A stretch of 64,000 bases of DNA from the NCBI GenBank assembly GCA_963703315.1, contig OY969811.1, forward strand, positions 2,336,001 through 2,400,000, in the 5' to 3' direction. The notes under the pieces are model-generated. The model was not told the DNA's origin. It searched no databases and saw only the letters and a list, made by a program, of their open reading frames with translations. Within the stretch, counting starts at the first letter, position 1. Each line of letters starts with the position of its first letter. Source of the stretch: an uncultured cyanobacterium. Lineage in GTDB: Bacteria; Cyanobacteriota; Cyanobacteriia; Pseudanabaenales; Pseudanabaenaceae. This document shows positions 23,413 through 31,365 of the stretch, one piece after another. The position numbers and the translations under genes are program-made.

Positions 23413-23470
23413 CTCCTTTCCCAGTGAATAATTAGTAGGGCGCGGCAAAGCCGCGCACCACTAATTATTC
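23413..23470. repeat. Repeat family C (CTCCTTTCCCAGT + triloop hairpin)
   Basis: Homologous copy at 51939-52001. Confidence 0.7.
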
Positions 23471-23579: not shown

Positions 23580-25172
23580 ATGACTATTAAGAAAATCTTG
23601 ATTCTGGCAGCTAATCCTCTTGAGACAGCAAGGTTACGACTAGAAAAAGAAGTAGAAGAAATTCGGGTAACTTTAGAGCGATCGCTAAACCGCGATCGCT
23701 ACCTGATTGAGTCAAGAGGTGCAGTACGTCCTCAAGATTTACAGCAATATTTATATAACCTGAAGCCACAGATTTTACATTTTTCAGGACATGGTGGTGG
23801 TGACTGGGGCTTAGCCTTTGAAGATGATGATGGCAAGACGAAGCCCGTTAGTACTGATGCATTAGCAGACTTGTTCAAGCTATTTGCTAATCAAATTCAG
23901 TGCGTAGTTCTAAATGCTTGTTATGCAGTGGTACAAGCAGAAGCGATTTGTCAGCATATTCCCTATGTGATTGGCATGAATCAGGCGATCGGTGATGAAG
24001 CGGCGCGAAGGTTTGCGGAAGGCTTTTATCGAGCAGTTTGGGATGATCGCTCGATTGAGGATGCCTTCGCATCGGGGGTAAATGCGATCGCCTTAGATGG
24101 AATTCCTGAAGAGTTAACGCCTGTGTTGCTAAAGCGAGATCGCAGTTTGCCAAAATCTAATCCTAATACTGAAATTTCGGTAGTAGAAAATAATGGCTAC
24201 TTTTATATTGTGCGATCGCGCTTAGAGCAACGTTGTTATGAAGAAGTCGTGAGGGCAGGTACATTAATTAGAATTAAGTCACCTGAGCGCATGGGCAAAT
24301 CCTTAATGATGGGGCGCGTTTTAAAGTATGCGACACAGCAGGGGCATCGCACCGCCGTGATTGATTTACGCGAAGCAAACAGAGAGTTTTTTGTAGATAT
24401 TAATAAATTTTTGCAATGGTTTTGTGCATATTTGGGCGATCAGTTAGAAGTTGACCAGCAACCTGAAACTGCATGGAAGAGCTTTTTAGGTGCAAATACA
24501 AACTGTACAAAATATGTGGAAAAATTCTTTTTAAATAGTGATGATTCACCCTTAGTAATTGCGATCGATAACTTCGATTGTGTGTTTAGATATCCCGATG
24601 TTGAAGCTGACTTTTGCGGATTATTGCGTGGTTGGTTCGAGAAAGTAAATACCAGTAAAGTCTGGGGCAAGTTGCGACAAATAATTGTCTATTCCCAAGA
24701 GTCTTATGCAACAAACAATATTAACCAATCACCTTTTAATGTAGGGTTGCCCATTGAACTCGATGAACTAGACGAATCGGAAGTCTTGGCTTTAGCAAAA
24801 GCCTATGGACTGCCTTGGACAGTTGCAGAAATTGCGAAACTAATGGATATGATTGGTGGTCATCCTTATTTAGTCCAGATGGCGATCGATCAAATCGCGC
24901 ACCGTAATATGGATATTGACAGGTTATTGCGAACTGCACCAACAGAAGAAGGCATTTATAGTAAATATCTTTACGAACGTTTACAACTATTAGAAAGCAA
25001 TCCCGAACTGGTAGAAGCCATGAAATTAGTTGTCAACTCCGATATTCCTGTAAGGTTGAGTGCAAAGGATGGGTTTAAGCTAGACAGCATGGGTTTGATA
25101 AAGCCACAAAATAGCGATCGCATCCCCCGTTGTAATTTATATCGTCTATACTTTAGCGACAGGTTGAGGTAA
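23580..25172 (+). CDS. CHAT (caspase-like) domain + AAA_35/STAND NTPase
   Basis: LHFSGHG and VVLNAC (His-Cys dyad), Walker A SPERMGKS, Walker B IAIDNFD, GGHPYL. ATG 23580 preferred over TTG 23565. Confidence 0.9.
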   Translation: MTIKKILILAANPLETARLRLEKEVEEIRVTLERSLNRDRYLIESRGAVRPQDLQQYLYNLKPQILHFSGHGGGDWGLAFEDDDGKTKPVSTDALADLFKLFANQIQCVVLNACYAVVQAEAICQHIPYVIGMNQAIGDEAARRFAEGFYRAVWDDRSIEDAFASGVNAIALDGIPEELTPVLLKRDRSLPKSNPNTEISVVENNGYFYIVRSRLEQRCYEEVVRAGTLIRIKSPERMGKSLMMGRVLKYATQQGHRTAVIDLREANREFFVDINKFLQWFCAYLGDQLEVDQQPETAWKSFLGANTNCTKYVEKFFLNSDDSPLVIAIDNFDCVFRYPDVEADFCGLLRGWFEKVNTSKVWGKLRQIIVYSQESYATNNINQSPFNVGLPIELDELDESEVLALAKAYGLPWTVAEIAKLMDMIGGHPYLVQMAIDQIAHRNMDIDRLLRTAPTEEGIYSKYLYERLQLLESNPELVEAMKLVVNSDIPVRLSAKDGFKLDSMGLIKPQNSDRIPRCNLYRLYFSDRLR

Positions 25173-25178
25173 TTGGCT

Positions 25179-27965
25179 ATGTCACCAGAATCACCCAATG
25201 AACAATTAATTAGTACTTCTGTCTATCGTGTCGGTGGCAGTTTGCCTGTAGATGCGCCAACTTATGTAGAACGAAAAGCTGATCACGAGCTATACAAAAG
25301 ACTGAAAGCGGGGGATTGTTGCTATGTATTTAATGCCAGACAGATGGGGAAGTCTAGCTTACGGGTGCGGGTAATTCAGAAATTAGAGCAGGATGGAGTG
25401 GTTTGTGCAACCCTTGATCCGCAAACTATTGGCACGCAGCTAGATCAGTCACAGTGGTATGCCAGTATTATCAGCAGTCTTGCGGAAAGTTTTAAACTAG
25501 AAGATTGCTTCGATTTAGAAGAATGGTGGGAAGCAAGACAATCGATCGCGCCTGTGAAATGTCTCAGTGATTTCATTTGTAATGTGCTGCTAACTGAGAT
25601 TAAGAAGCCCATCGTAATCTTTGTGGAAGAGATTGATAATTTGCTCAATCTTAAGTTTGTTGCTGATGACTTTTTTATGTTGATTCGTTCATTTTACGAA
25701 AATCGCGCCCAAGAACCACAATTTGATCGATTATCCTTTGCTTTTGTCGGTGTGGCTACTCCGCGTGATTTAATGCTGAGCCAAAATCATTCGGTGTTTA
25801 ACATTGGTGTAGCGATCGAGATGGGCGGTTTCCAATTGGATGAGGTGAAACCGTTAGAGATTGGACTAAAGGGAAAAGTTCCAGATCCGCATTTAGTAAT
25901 GCGTGAGGTATTGCAATGGACTGGTGGACAGCCTTTCTTGACGCAGAAGTTACTTAGTTTGGTAATTAGTGAGATAGAAGAAAATAATGTAGATGCATCA
26001 AAGCAAGATATTCCCGTATGGATTAAGCAAATCGTTCAAGAACACATCATTAATAATTGGGAAACTCAAGATGTACCACAACATCTCAAAACCTTGCAAG
26101 ATCGTCTATTAGTAAGGACTGATGAAGATGGTAGAGGGCGACTTTTGGGTTTGTATCAGAGAGTTTTGGATGGGGATAAATACCAAACTTCTTTGGTTAA
26201 TGTAGAAGAATATAAAAAAGAAAATTCTTCTTTCATGGAAGGAATTTCTTCTGATGATAGTGAAGATCAAAAGAAACTGCGTCTGACAGGGTTAGTTGTC
26301 AAGCGAGATAACAGATTAATTGTTTACAACCCTATCTATGCAGGAGTTTTCAATCAAGAGTGGGTAAGCCGTAACTTAGCAGATTTGCGTCCACCTTTAT
26401 ATTTAGAAGCTTTTAGGAAGTGGCAAGTAAGCGACGAACAACAAAAGTATTCTTTTCTTTTGCGAGGAAAGGCGCTTGAAGATGCGGAGATCTGGGCAAA
26501 GGATAAGCGATTGAGTGATGAGGATTATAGGTTCTTGGCAGCAAGTCGGGAGATGAATAATCAAGTTATGCTAGCGGAAGTTAAGTTTAATGCGGAAAAA
26601 CAGAGAACAAAATTTGCGATCGGTGGGGGGATTGTTGCTTTAGTTCTTGCAGGATTAGCTTCATGGCAATTAGTAGTTGCTGATAAAAACGCGAAAATTG
26701 TTGTTGATAATGCTGTTGAAAGAGTCGAAGAACTTTTTCAGAAAAACTATCAATTTGAATCTTTAACAGAGAGCATTAAAACGATGGATTTAATGAAGAC
26801 TTTAGGTAAGACAAATGATAAAGATCTTATTGAAAGACTTTATAAAGTAATCTCTAATATCCAAGAAAGAAATCAACTAAAAGGTCATCAAAATGAGATT
26901 TTGGGCTTAAGTATTCATCCTGATGGTCAGAAAATTGTCTCTAGTGGTTTCGATAACACTATAAAATTATGGAATATAGAAGGAAACATCTTATATACCA
27001 AGAGTCAAGAATATAGACAATGGAGTGTAAAATTTAGTCATAGTGGTCAATTGATAGCATCTGTAGATGACATTAATTCAATATCATTATGGAAAATACA
27101 AAATGATAAACTTCTACTGCTTGATTCTAATATTATTAAAGATCTAAAAATCAATAAACAAGCTAATATTCCAGACAATCAGATTGGCAACTTAGAATTT
27201 AGTCCCAACGACGAAATGATTGCCTTCTCAAATAACGATAAAAATCTTAGATTGTGGATAAAAAACTCAAAAATAAGACAAGTGTCATGCCGTGATGGAG
27301 ATCAAAATAGTTGGATTTACACTATGAATTTTCATCCTCAAAAAAACACTGTGGCTTTTGCCTGTAAAGATTTAGTTTATATATGGGATACAGTTAAATC
27401 GGATTTATCTCAATTGATTCCTAATTCAAAGCATGAAAATACAGTTAATGCAGTTAAGTTTAGTGTTAATGGAGATATACTAGCGTCTGCAAGTAGTGAT
27501 GGAAATATAAAATTATGGGATACAAAGAATGACTACAAAAAAATAGGAGAAATAAAGCCTAAAAATCCATTGCTTTATATTACAGACATTGCGTTTGATA
27601 ATCAAAACAACTTTATTGCCTCTTCATATACAAATAACAACATAGGTATTAAAATCTGGAGCTTAGAAAAAGCTCTTAAATTATATCCTAAGCCTTTACA
27701 AGAACCAGAGAATAATAATCTTTTAGGTCACACTCAATCAGTAAATAGAATAATATTTAACCCAACTAATCCACTTTCAATTATTTCTGCAAGCAGCGAC
27801 TCAAGTATCAGGATCTGGTCTTTGAATAAGTCTTCAACTAATGCTACAGAAAAGCATATATCTAAATTACTTAGCTATGCATGTAGTTTAGTTAAACCTT
27901 ATATCTACACTGACAAAGTTAATCCTAAAAATCAAACTCTTAATAAAATTTGTCAGACAAACTAA
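25179..27965 (+). CDS. AAA_35/STAND NTPase + TM segment + WD40 repeats
   Basis: Walker A NARQMGKS, IFVEEID, GGQPFL, hydrophobic FAIGGGIVALVLAGLASWQLVV, GH...D.TIKLW repeats. Confidence 0.9.
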   Translation: MSPESPNEQLISTSVYRVGGSLPVDAPTYVERKADHELYKRLKAGDCCYVFNARQMGKSSLRVRVIQKLEQDGVVCATLDPQTIGTQLDQSQWYASIISSLAESFKLEDCFDLEEWWEARQSIAPVKCLSDFICNVLLTEIKKPIVIFVEEIDNLLNLKFVADDFFMLIRSFYENRAQEPQFDRLSFAFVGVATPRDLMLSQNHSVFNIGVAIEMGGFQLDEVKPLEIGLKGKVPDPHLVMREVLQWTGGQPFLTQKLLSLVISEIEENNVDASKQDIPVWIKQIVQEHIINNWETQDVPQHLKTLQDRLLVRTDEDGRGRLLGLYQRVLDGDKYQTSLVNVEEYKKENSSFMEGISSDDSEDQKKLRLTGLVVKRDNRLIVYNPIYAGVFNQEWVSRNLADLRPPLYLEAFRKWQVSDEQQKYSFLLRGKALEDAEIWAKDKRLSDEDYRFLAASREMNNQVMLAEVKFNAEKQRTKFAIGGGIVALVLAGLASWQLVVADKNAKIVVDNAVERVEELFQKNYQFESLTESIKTMDLMKTLGKTNDKDLIERLYKVISNIQERNQLKGHQNEILGLSIHPDGQKIVSSGFDNTIKLWNIEGNILYTKSQEYRQWSVKFSHSGQLIASVDDINSISLWKIQNDKLLLLDSNIIKDLKINKQANIPDNQIGNLEFSPNDEMIAFSNNDKNLRLWIKNSKIRQVSCRDGDQNSWIYTMNFHPQKNTVAFACKDLVYIWDTVKSDLSQLIPNSKHENTVNAVKFSVNGDILASASSDGNIKLWDTKNDYKKIGEIKPKNPLLYITDIAFDNQNNFIASSYTNNNIGIKIWSLEKALKLYPKPLQEPENNNLLGHTQSVNRIIFNPTNPLSIISASSDSSIRIWSLNKSSTNATEKHISKLLSYACSLVKPYIYTDKVNPKNQTLNKICQTN

Positions 27966-29296
27966 TTTGAGGGACACTGATTCTTACAATGACAAGTTGA
28001 TTGACCACAGCAACTACAACCTCCTAAAATTTCATTTGTACCTATACCAAAGCCACTTGTATTAATCCACTCAGCGTTCAGCAAAGACCACCAATCAGTA
28101 GCCAAACCTTTTTCAACATACTCATATGGCATCCATCCATATCCTTTATCTCCCCATCCATCTCCCTGTGAATCTCTAAATAAGAATCCTCCTTTCAATG
28201 GTGGTTTAGAATCATCTGGATTATCAAATTCCAAATAATCATCATATCCAACAGCAACGAGAGCATGACCCATTTGAGATTGAGTATTTTGAAGAGATAA
28301 AGGAGGAACTATAATTTGTCCTAATTTCCTCTTCTTCGTTGTATTAACTGTTTCTATTTTTTTTAACTCATCTTGATTTATATATTTAGTGAAAATGCTA
28401 GTATCGCTAATGCCAAAAATTGCTGGAAAACCTGATGCCAAAGCAATACGAATCTGAGCTACAGTTAATTGACCTATTTCAATTTCATTCTCCTTTTTTT
28501 TCTCAATTGTTAGTAATTCTTGATTGTAAATTTCTCTGAGTTTATCCAATCGAAAATACTTAGATGCTTGAAAATTTTGGGCATAAGCATAAGCAAATGC
28601 TGAAGGTTGCTTGCCACCTGTTAAATTATCAGTTCGTTCTTCTGTTGCTAGCCAATTTTTTTGTTCTTCTTTTGTTACTAGCCAATTTTTATCAGACTTT
28701 TCTGGAGGGACTCCAAATAGAACCATAGCCCTTAGAGTGTCTCTCAGTGTTGCGCCACCATCACTGAGAGGTTTTTCTTGGTCTAAATACATTAGATCTC
28801 TAGTAACTTTATAAAGGAATCGCCAAGAAAGTTTACTGTTAACATTCTTACTAGCACGATTTTGGAAATACTCCATTAAAGCTTTTCCTGCATGGGCAGT
28901 ACAGGTCATCCCCTCTTGAGGTTCTTTAATTGGAGAGAAATATTCTCGTAAATCAACAGATTCTTTCAAAAACAAGTCTTGATTTAACAAAGCCTTAATT
29001 TCGTCTTCATACCCATCTTTTTTAGTAAAAGTCATTATCAAATAGGGAGGCTTCTTATACCTCTTTTGCTTTGCTTTCCATTCTTCCTCAGGCACTAGAC
29101 GCATTGCTCTTTGATATATAGGAGACTTATCATCTTCGGCAAACAAAACTCTTTCGAGTCTAATATTTTTTGCCTCAGTCTCTACCTCCTCTGGTACTAA
29201 TCTGCTGACAACAGTTTCTAAGGAATACTGATTAACTGTGTTAATTTTTTGTTCTTCAGTAACTGACCAACCTGTTCTATTTACTGTCACTGTCAT
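27962..29296 (-). CDS. Papain-like (C1) cysteine peptidase with Cys-rich C-terminal tail
   Basis: SVDLRE, CTAHAG (Cys), GHALVAVGYDD (His), WGDKGYGWMPY. Confidence 0.85.
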   Translation of the reverse strand: MTVTVNRTGWSVTEEQKINTVNQYSLETVVSRLVPEEVETEAKNIRLERVLFAEDDKSPIYQRAMRLVPEEEWKAKQKRYKKPPYLIMTFTKKDGYEDEIKALLNQDLFLKESVDLREYFSPIKEPQEGMTCTAHAGKALMEYFQNRASKNVNSKLSWRFLYKVTRDLMYLDQEKPLSDGGATLRDTLRAMVLFGVPPEKSDKNWLVTKEEQKNWLATEERTDNLTGGKQPSAFAYAYAQNFQASKYFRLDKLREIYNQELLTIEKKKENEIEIGQLTVAQIRIALASGFPAIFGISDTSIFTKYINQDELKKIETVNTTKKRKLGQIIVPPLSLQNTQSQMGHALVAVGYDDYLEFDNPDDSKPPLKGGFLFRDSQGDGWGDKGYGWMPYEYVEKGLATDWWSLLNAEWINTSGFGIGTNEILGGCSCCGQSTCHCKNQCPSN

Positions 29297-29628
29297 TTTC
29301 TTACCTTAGCTTAATTTATAACTCTTAATAATCAATTCAACTTAGCATCATAAAAGCTAAGTTAACAGTCACGATTAGATATCTTATTTACTCAACCTTA
29401 ATACCTTTATTGCAACCTACATAGTTAAAAATAAATACGCAATAAAACTTTACCTAAAGTTGTGAACTTGCTTCTGAGATAAAGTCTAAGCATATAAATC
29501 TAGTCAATCTAGAAGTTTCTACAAACAGATCAATCGGGCTTTAACAGAATTGTGATTTTAGAAATAGCGATCGCTTCCACAAGGCTTTTTGCGATCGCCA
29601 TTTTTGGTGATGAATTTAGCGATCGCAA

Positions 29629-31365
29629 TTACAAGCGCTTAACTTTGCTTTTGAGAATCTTTTCCTCCACTTCATTGATTTGTACCTCACGCAATCGCGT
29701 TGCATAGGCAGGAAATGGAAAACCTACTAGCAACGGTGATGGAACTTCGGGCTGATGGATAAACATACTCCCTGATTTTAATAACAGCGATCGCTTCCGA
29801 CAAGCACCTGTCAAGAAATTATATTCAGGGCGTTCCACCTCGGCGGAGTCCAAACGACCAACCACCCGCACCGCCGCCTGTCCAACCACGCGCCGTTCTA
29901 CTTCTGAAGCAGTTTGTTGTGCGCCGATCAAAATAATGCCTAGCGATCGCCCTCGTTCTGCTATTTCCACTAATAGATCTTTAATGGGGCTACGACCTTC
30001 TTTGGGCGCATATTTATTCAACTCATCAAGGACGATAAAGACAACGGGATATTGACCACGCTTTTCCTTTTCCATGAAGAGTTTTTGTAACAGCACACCC
30101 ACGACAAACTTTTGGGCTTTACTACCGAGCTTGTTGATATCGGCGATCGTTAACTGATATTCCGCCGCAAGGGGATCGAGCTTATATTTTTGTAATTCTT
30201 CGGGTGGAAGATCGCCACGAATCAGATGCCCCATTTCATCGGCAATTCCCCAAAGACGACGGGTGAGAGCCTCCGCAGTCGCAGGAGCATTACGTCCTAG
30301 CCATTTTTGATCAGGATTCTCCACTAATTTATCTTCGAGAAATTCAATCAAATCACGGAAAGTTTCTACCTTGTCTTTGCCATCTTCACCATAGCTATCA
30401 TCTAAATCAAGACTAGCTCTAGGCATAAATCCTAGCTTTCTATCATATTTGTCATTATCCGCCGCTAATCTTGCCAAACGTTCTTCGACAATACTTGCCA
30501 AAAAGCCAATATTTCCACGCTCTAGATCGTCACCTGCAAATAAGAAACGAAAGAGGCGATCGCGACAAAATTCACGCATACCCCACACATAAGCGGAAAT
30601 ATTATCGGAACGTTGATCGAGATGGGGTTCTATCTCTTGCGTGTTTTTCTTAGGCGCAACACAAAACCGAACGTCTTGGAATGGCTCTACAGGTAGATCA
30701 AGGGCATGGTAAGTAGCTCGATCCTCTTCGCGCATCTTATTATTTGCTTTATCTAAGAAGAATAAATCTTCTCCCTTGACATTAAAAATTAGAGCTTTAG
30801 TATTTGCTCTTTTGGAACCAAGTGCTGCCGAATTAAAAATGGAATGGAGCAGAAATAGAGCAAAGGAAGTTTTAGTGGCTACGCCTGAAATTCCTGAAAT
30901 ATTGACATGAGCGCCTTTCGTACCATCGATAAATTCATAATTCAAATAGGCTGGACTGCCATTTCGCATGATTCCTGCGGAGATGCGTTGTTCCATGCCA
31001 TCGAAGTTTAGCGCAAATCGGAGGTTCTCATCTTCGGCTAAATAGACCGCATCGCTGGGCTGTGGTGGTAAATACTCTTCTGGCTCAATGCGTGTGACTT
31101 GGATATGGGCAGCATAGGAGACATTCACGGGCATACTGCCACTGGTAACTAGGAATGTATCCGTATCAAATTGGGTTCCTTCATGGATGGTTCGCACATG
31201 ATCAACGACTCCATAGAAGTTGACGACCCCTTTTTTGTCAGGGCGATCAGTCTTTACCTGTATGACATCATCAAGGCGAAGGACTTTACCATCGCTGACT
31301 GCCACCCAAAATTCGAGAGGTGTAGCGTCTTTGGTTCCTAATATGTATCCAATCGGCTCGATCAT
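29629..31365 (-). CDS. herA: HerA-like (HAS barrel + DUF87) ATPase
   Basis: HAS-like N-terminus, variant Walker A GISGVATKTS, VLDELNKYAP, ERGRSLG, GAQQ. Confidence 0.85.
   Translation of the reverse strand: MIEPIGYILGTKDATPLEFWVAVSDGKVLRLDDVIQVKTDRPDKKGVVNFYGVVDHVRTIHEGTQFDTDTFLVTSGSMPVNVSYAAHIQVTRIEPEEYLPPQPSDAVYLAEDENLRFALNFDGMEQRISAGIMRNGSPAYLNYEFIDGTKGAHVNISGISGVATKTSFALFLLHSIFNSAALGSKRANTKALIFNVKGEDLFFLDKANNKMREEDRATYHALDLPVEPFQDVRFCVAPKKNTQEIEPHLDQRSDNISAYVWGMREFCRDRLFRFLFAGDDLERGNIGFLASIVEERLARLAADNDKYDRKLGFMPRASLDLDDSYGEDGKDKVETFRDLIEFLEDKLVENPDQKWLGRNAPATAEALTRRLWGIADEMGHLIRGDLPPEELQKYKLDPLAAEYQLTIADINKLGSKAQKFVVGVLLQKLFMEKEKRGQYPVVFIVLDELNKYAPKEGRSPIKDLLVEIAERGRSLGIILIGAQQTASEVERRVVGQAAVRVVGRLDSAEVERPEYNFLTGACRKRSLLLKSGSMFIHQPEVPSPLLVGFPFPAYATRLREVQINEVEEKILKSKVKRL

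Follow-up and report, generated by a model that had tools for sequence, protein, structure and literature searches.

The stretch of DNA analyzed here, 64,000 nucleotides from an uncultured cyanobacterium of the family Pseudanabaenaceae (contig OY969811.1, positions 2,336,001 to 2,400,000; herein referred to as the window, whose numbering is used throughout), encodes three tightly packed genes: a caspase-like CHAT protease fused to an AAA_35 STAND module (gene 1; 23580..25172, plus strand, 530 amino acids), a receptor that joins an AAA_35 STAND module to a transmembrane helix and a WD40 domain (gene 2; 25179..27965, plus strand, 928 amino acids) and a convergent C1A peptidase (gene 3; 29296..27962, minus strand, 444 amino acids). 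Gene 2 starts 6 nucleotides (nt) after gene 1, and gene 3 overlaps the stop codon of gene 2 by 4 nt. A sequence-only reading of this DNA had listed these open reading frames (ORFs) and their spacing, the catalytic dyad of the CHAT domain, a hydrophobic helix and a Cys-rich end on the peptidase, all of which are present; it had also cast the three genes as one system tied to AAA_35 pairs, and here our comparisons point elsewhere. Judged from sequence comparison, the locus is a cassette, made of a receptor ectodomain and a tailed protease, plugged into an ordinary AAA_35 pair.

Within gene 1, Pfam places CHAT (PF12770; 33 bits against a cut-off of 24) at residues 20-163 and AAA_35 at residues 201-526. 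The catalytic dyad, His71/Cys114, looks intact and aligns with His355/Cys402 of PDB 8TL0, which we take to be SAVED-CHAT. In the available part of 10.1101/2023.06.23.546230, the SAVED-CHAT dyad is H375/C422, a numbering 20 above that of 8TL0. The STAND module of gene 1 retains the Walker A Lys; its Walker B reads Asp-Asn, the catalytic Glu being replaced. Genes 1 and 2 score 388 and 121 bits for AAA_35 (PF14516; cut-off 27), which identifies them as an AAA_35 pair, and are 23% identical to one another. A second CHAT-AAA_35 pair lies elsewhere in the genome (L020:3591-12203; G000:C1 about 448600-457200), where the receptor ORF stops at 614 amino acids without a helix and is followed by transposase-like ORFs and a 1059-amino-acid ORF; this pair looks interrupted by an insertion sequence, an assignment made by eye.

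AAA_35 spans residues 20-265 of gene 2, within a predicted cytoplasmic part (25179..26624, plus strand) that also includes a conserved helical region after the STAND module. There follows a single predicted transmembrane helix (26625..26681, plus strand; residues 483-501; Kyte-Doolittle mean 1.96), the sole hydrophobic helix of the protein, with basic residues on its N side. The remainder is a predicted extracytoplasmic domain (26682..27965, plus strand; GC 0.30) composed of three helices, a 7-bladed WD40 propeller and a C-terminal helix pair with two invariant Cys, and the AlphaFold model (predicted local distance difference test, pLDDT, 89; predicted template modeling score, pTM, 0.88) shows the propeller flanked by helical caps. 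Lys and Arg are more frequent on the N side of the helix in 28 of 29 receptors partnered with related peptidases, which fits an N-in/C-out topology for these receptors, and the WD40 domain of gene 2 likely lies on the far side of the membrane, as the sequence-only reading had suggested.

By sequence and fold, gene 3 is a papain-family (C1A) peptidase of the xylellain type. It has no Pfam match at E 0.01, its relatives do match PF00112, and its nearest structure, xylellain (PDB 3OIS), is reached at E 1.5e-10 with the single sequence and at 1.9e-30 with a profile and is also its best fold match; a search of the ESM Atlas returned C1 peptidase clusters alone. The peptidase body (28052..29296, minus strand) comprises a pro-region and a catalytic core with Cys132, His344 and Asp375. 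The catalytic Cys and His are intact in gene 3 and retained in all 145 tailed members of its clade; Asp stands in place of the triad Asn, as in 6 of the 145, the Trp two residues on is a Gln, and the oxyanion Gln is off by one. Beyond the body lie a subclade-conserved spacer (28019..28051, minus strand; residues 416-426, from a Phe-Gly motif to Leu-Gly-Gly), which is a candidate self-cleavage site, and a hypervariable terminal piece of 18 residues with 6 Cys (27965..28018, minus strand), which is a candidate peptide ligand. The pro-part also contains a small beta-rich insert (residues 45-115 of gene 3, P0003; window about 28950-29165, minus strand) that is specific to the window's subclade and is modeled at pLDDT 54-86.

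Members of the peptidase clade were sorted by the length of sequence past the last conserved Trp, those with a C-terminal tail of 20-65 residues being counted as tailed, and the presence of a tail goes with the neighboring gene. Among genome loci, a WD40 receptor gene is adjacent to 25 of 25 tailed peptidases and to 1 of 68 tailless ones, WD40 neighbors having been found with our own queries, which could miss divergent repeats. The genome set held 97 rows, from which 2 duplicates were dropped and 2 members set aside (a 211-residue extra domain; an aberrant end), neither with a WD40 neighbor; ten distant C1 loci below 200 bits, one of which (L118) has a WD40 neighbor, were excluded from the count. 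The metagenome set (76 rows, 3 truncated) shows the same pattern, with a WD40 gene beside 9 of 11 tailed members, both misses lying at contig ends, against 0 of 62 tailless ones, 32 of which have more than 1.5 kb on both sides. AAA_35, by comparison, is present in 41 of the 48 genus genomes and the peptidase clade in 6, and the clade is absent from all 19 other AAA_35 loci examined; the peptidase is therefore not linked to AAA_35 pairs. The triple of CHAT-AAA_35, receptor and peptidase was seen at one other locus (L147), and receptors without AAA_35 are also partnered, so that the idea of three genes forming a fixed system peculiar to AAA_35 pairs is rejected, while a conserved link between peptidase and WD40 receptor, which the same reading had raised, stands.

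Across the sequences compared, the tailed peptidase is linked to the transmembrane-WD40 ectodomain regardless of the inner module: the linkage holds where identity has fallen to 28-40%, whichever way the two genes are oriented, and extends across six or more inner modules. The named tailed loci are all cyanobacterial, and a tailed copy was seen in 5 of the 401 genomes of a phylum sample. A check of copy number in 5 genomes gave one per genome in all 5, and the genome of the window likewise has one. The tailed state needs 2 changes on the peptidase tree; the linkage may have a single origin, being old and retained rather than demonstrably gained repeatedly. As to tailless relatives, xylellain-type peptidases follow directly after LanM, with Nif11- or NHLP-type precursors, at L109:9180-13844 and L112:9178-16073 and are possibly leader-removing proteases of cyanobacterial lanthipeptide clusters, and a gene for a chagasin (I42) inhibitor precedes a tailless C1 peptidase at L105:8639-10048 and L107:5248-6657.

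The partner receptors are uniform outside the membrane and diverse within. In each full-length partner listed, a single hydrophobic helix precedes the WD40 domain and two Cys fall within the last 60 residues; these Cys are invariant in a 15-row alignment and lie on the two terminal helices of the AlphaFold model. Most partners have inner modules other than AAA_35, and several lack any STAND; the modules include kinase-AAA_35, TIR (to which L142 was assigned solely by N-terminal likeness), triple TIR, TIR-nSTAND1, caspase-nSTAND1, close to which Trypco1 is found, and nSTAND1, in some cases accompanied by a separate CHAT. As in gene 1, another residue takes the place of the Walker B Glu in every effector-bearing partner listed. 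Convergent pairs have a single propeller and a short peptidase, and most tandem pairs an ectodomain of about 690 residues and a long peptidase, many of the long forms with peptidoglycan-binding domains. A single starred clade (98) unites the 14 ectodomains of convergent type and excludes 11 unlinked receptors, and ectodomain distances correlate with peptidase distances (rho 0.805, n 27). Some neighboring genes were named by eye: an AAA-ATPase and HNH-like gene pair lies two genes off a long-form tailed peptidase (L223:2948-5037, genome G067), and among the genus AAA_35 receptors (L121-L139), whose parts beyond the helix vary widely (WD40, TPR, CHAT-like ends or none), small XisH/XisI- and toxin-antitoxin-like genes often lie between or after the two STAND genes.

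We compared 145 distinct tails, among them 53 disjoint close pairs. In these tails the Phe-Gly motif precedes a subclade-conserved spacer, which passes into a variable end, and in 44 of the 53 close pairs the terminal piece has been replaced, identity falling from 0.55-0.9 to about 0.25 at position +13 from the Phe. The replacement can be complete: the peptidases P0006 and P0218 are identical over 300 of 300 body residues and have unrelated Cys-rich ends, another pair is identical at 296 of 300 with different Cys-rich ends, and replacement of the end was found in 5 of the 10 peptidase clusters examined. An even Cys count is kept in 23 of 24 short-form Cys tails, or 23 of 27 when three single-Cys long forms are added, these sequences being related. 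In 70 of the 145 tails the spacer window contains a hydrophobic residue followed by Gly; shuffled sequences give a mean of 37 and a maximum of 53. Members of 47-49 residues in the peptidase clusters were considered as orphan tail cassettes and rejected, being unrelated in sequence.

At convergent loci the tail abuts the end of the ectodomain, and of seven convergent pairs compared, four (L041/L082, L054/L082, L041/L054 and L142/L143) show a block of exchange. In these four, the peptidase core is mostly 85-100% identical at the nucleotide level, the stretch that starts at the Phe-Gly motif and takes in the ectodomain and helix is about 40-89% identical, and identity returns to at least 90% at or just inside the membrane, the diverged block measuring 1.6 kb; synonymous divergence (dS) reaches 0.63-1.5 in the ectodomain, compared with 0.08-0.26 in the peptidase body. 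The tail therefore moves with the sensor and not with its own enzyme. L029 and L041 have close ectodomains and retain related tails; between the window and L014 the entire cassette is evenly diverged; and between the window and L147 the inner part of the receptor is 91% identical, the ectodomain 37% and the peptidase 56%, the cassette having been wholly replaced.

By its sequence, the locus of the window is a mosaic island whose cassette is recombined and low in GC. The cassette (26601..29540) has a GC of 0.326 against 0.422 for the genome, a value matched or undercut by 5 of 1552 genome windows, and it contains 0 HIP1 octamers against 1.8 per kb genome-wide. The 5' part of the locus resembles one set of relatives at 72-82% as far as 26170-26930, and the 3' part resembles L014, whose inner module is kinase-AAA_35, at 74% from 26238 on; the crossover zone lies in gene 2 at about 26240-26560; the nearest named relatives are Pseudanabaena. 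Contigs from run X1, which may be the source sample, span the STAND-ectodomain and ectodomain-peptidase junctions with zero differences; in runs X2-X4 coverage extends over the flanks and the STAND genes and is slight or absent over the ectodomain and peptidase, the uncovered part not being counted as evidence. The island has an empty site in the relatives G010 and G024, where the flanking hydrolase and HerA-like genes lie less than 60 nt apart, and a palindrome like those of repetitive extragenic palindromic elements marks its left edge (23426..23470); no terminal repeats of mobile elements were found at its edges, and promoter and terminator scans did not rise above shuffles (15 against 20.9 and 1 against 4.7). 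The HerA-like ATPase (29629-31365), which has no Pfam match and weak HerA matches in NCBIfam and PADLOC, is present in nearly all genus genomes searched; at L140:5122-5790 (genome G025) the island site holds instead a duplicated 3' end of the HerA-like gene and a small ORF, an arrangement that hints at an insertion hot spot. A defense-island setting was considered and rejected, the flanking genes being housekeeping genes.

From this genomic pattern, which is observed, we infer with a confidence somewhat short of even that the tail is a self-released peptide and that an NLR-like receptor, its sensor turned to the periplasm, has this peptide as cognate ligand. Papain-family enzymes prefer a hydrophobic P2, and the peptidase would cut its own tail after the last Gly of the spacer, which offers a hydrophobic P2. 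Because no export signal was found on the peptidase, we propose that the tail peptide would reach the periplasm or medium through lysis or wall damage, where it would oxidize, form disulfides and bind the outward-facing propeller; binding would drive assembly of the two STAND proteins into a hetero-oligomer, the CHAT protease would fire, and the output would be regulated death or growth arrest of neighboring cells with the same allele. The earlier suggestion that the peptidase makes the ligand of the receptor thus gains support, the peptidase's own tail being a concrete putative ligand, and loses its frame of a three-part system bound to AAA_35 pairs. A broader version, which we hold to be doubtful, is that filamentous cyanobacteria use a cytokine-like, allele-specific signal of danger or self. 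In this version a protease of the papain type would free its own disulfide-bonded peptide, the peptide would activate a membrane receptor of the Toll or NLR kind on clone-mates, effectors of the TIR, caspase, CHAT or kinase type would be triggered, and the ligand would be swapped together with the sensor as one cassette, like agr pherotypes or the plant S-locus. Convergent to another AAA_35-transmembrane-WD40 receptor lies a gene for a COP23-domain protein (L130:6339-6935, genome G025) whose N-terminus resembles a signal peptide and whose C-terminal extension is rich in Gly and Ser; arranged as it is like gene 3, it may encode a ligand precursor of another kind.

Several points weigh against the tail being a ligand. 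The largest gap is the peptidase's route to the far side of the membrane: a hydropathy scan, run without a dedicated predictor, gave no signal or transmembrane segment, and a double-glycine export route was considered and set aside, the genome having one C39 domain, far from the locus and with no link shown. The activity of the gene 3 enzyme is uncertain because of its Asn to Asp and Trp to Gln replacements and shifted Gln, and its model is poor (pLDDT 57, about 35 in the tail) and uninformative on the tail. Crossovers require conserved flanks, so that a swap of a convergent ectodomain drags the tail along and adjacency alone yields co-variation, and dN/dS (the ratio of nonsynonymous to synonymous divergence) of the ectodomain is below 0.5. 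The correlation between ectodomain and peptidase distances is inflated because kin share both genes, and the linkage counts are not independent, given the 2 changes on the tree and a possible single origin. In tandem long forms, the tail does not adjoin the ectodomain, and the ends are of low complexity and may drift; L028 and L060 have unrelated ends on ectodomains 85% alike, against 89% for the inner parts. The part recognized at tandem loci with unrelated ends on conserved ectodomains may therefore be the spacer, or nothing.

The cassette evidence, block swap and dS alike, would also fit if the tail, spacer or processed enzyme were a cognate inhibitor that holds the WD40 receptor off, its loss or cleavage upon non-kin contact, damage or attack by a foreign protease freeing the death module. 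The single copy in each genome checked and the near-constant company of tailed peptidase and receptor are also what such a guard would show. We nevertheless regard it as unlikely: it would require constant delivery across the membrane, and most transmembrane-WD40 and AAA_35 receptors stand without such a partner, from which it follows that this receptor type is not toxic by default.

The peptidase might instead produce the ligand from another substrate, such as a wall-associated host protein or a protein of an invader, with the tail a weakly constrained, hitch-hiking extension. That the receptor tracks the presence of the tail and not mere membership of the clade, that the spacer is conserved and that even Cys counts outlast complete replacement of the tail all make this less probable still, despite the peptidoglycan-binding domains of long forms, their low-complexity ends and the pattern of L028 and L060, and despite the tailless cyanobacterial relatives at L109 and L112, whose setting in LanM clusters with Nif11- or NHLP-type precursors means that the clade may cut other peptides.

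A cytoplasmic cascade, in which CHAT or caspase, once activated, cuts the pro-peptidase and the peptidase acts as executioner, has a precedent in SAVED-CHAT with PCaspase (10.1101/2023.06.23.546230, as far as its available part describes it) and would suit a peptidase that lacks an export signal, an intact-looking CHAT dyad and the many partners with caspase or CHAT. Many other partners have TIR or kinase modules only, the peptidase tracks the ectodomain and not the inner module, and the variable, even-Cys tail is left unaccounted for, so we consider a cascade improbable, ranking below the other-substrate explanation. Least probable of all is that the receptor is an ordinary phage sensor, cytoplasmic or tethered to the membrane, with a WD40 domain that diversifies against invaders and the peptidase as a long-standing passenger: STAND proteins with WD40 sensors are known defense proteins (PMC13581612, in part), the linkage may have a single origin and one of the ten distant C1 loci has a WD40 neighbor, but the linkage survives inversion, module swaps and deep divergence, the flanks are housekeeping genes, and PADLOC matched the CHAT and WD40 stretches alone, the STAND parts falling under no system model.

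Many TIR, caspase and STAND proteins encoded in cyanobacterial genomes span the membrane and have a WD40 ectodomain, and the literature passages searched contain no report of a ligand for them. The present locus offers a candidate, a peptide of fewer than 30 residues encoded beside its sensor, for which natural cognate and non-cognate pairs exist. Should the tail prove to be the ligand, bacterial NLR-like proteins would respond not only to phage proteins but also to extracellular signals of the bacteria's own making, and danger signaling or kin recognition in multicellular bacteria would have a concrete mechanism. Even without a ligand, the strictly linked, co-swapped receptor-protease cassette stands, and it was not found in the literature searched: no account of C1 peptidases next to WD40 receptors emerged there, most subscription papers lying outside its scope, nor does a row of this kind occur in the portions consulted of the supplementary tables of PMC8195603 and PMC7159879. 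Caspase-WD40 architectures, transmembrane helices within them and periplasm-facing STAND sensors have been catalogued or proposed, in the parts available, among PMC7159879, PMC8195603, PMC10380794, PMC13581612, PMC3501461, PMC8283722, PMC10907252, PMC6834553 and 10.1101/2023.06.23.546230.

Among known systems, genes 1 and 2 resemble the AAA_35 STAND pairs of cyanobacteria, in which an effector-STAND gene precedes a STAND-transmembrane-variable sensor gene; unlike here, the convergent tailed peptidase is missing from most such pairs, and it also serves receptors without AAA_35. AAA_35 (PF14516) is presumably the Npun2340/2341 family of the MNS clade. That family is named in section 7 of PMC8195603. 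The nSTAND2 two-gene system, as section 15 of PMC8195603 presents it, similarly has two STAND genes, an effector on the copy with the eroded NTP motif and a predicted hetero-multimer, and gene 1, which lacks the Walker B Glu, resembles its inactive partner; both STAND modules here are, in contrast, AAA_35 by Pfam, the effector is CHAT and not GT4 or HEPN, and that section includes neither a transmembrane-WD40 protein nor a peptidase. The anti-phage STANDs Avs (PMC13581612, in part) and bNACHT share the STAND switch, repeat sensor and protease effector, but in gene 2 the sensor and the switch lie on either side of a helix, and the locus itself encodes the candidate ligand; the locus matched no described system model of this kind, and an NCBIfam scan gave no match near its cut-off. 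Gene 3 shares its fold, catalytic Cys/His, pro-region motif and lack of a signal peptide with short bacterial C1A peptidases of the xylellain type (PDB 3OIS; PMC10380794, in part), and differs from them in its C-terminal spacer and variable tail, subclade triad Asp and fixed receptor neighbor.

The genetic layout is like that of staphylococcal agr, whose hypervariable region runs from agrB to agrC (PMC6834553, in the part available). The two differ in that no part is homologous, the candidate peptide is here fused to the protease, an export route is not seen and the output would run through a protease, TIR or kinase module and not a response regulator; a scan of the three genes and of flanking genes revealed no homologues of AgrB, AgrD, AgrC or AgrA. 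What agr shares with the locus is a protease, a variable peptide and a receptor sensor domain in one swappable block between conserved flanks. In Toll/Spaetzle and the SRK/SCR pair of the Brassica S-locus, likewise, a protease-matured or Cys-rich polymorphic peptide acts with a linked membrane receptor, and the TIR-transmembrane-ectodomain forms among the partner receptors may, by analogy only, be likened to these.

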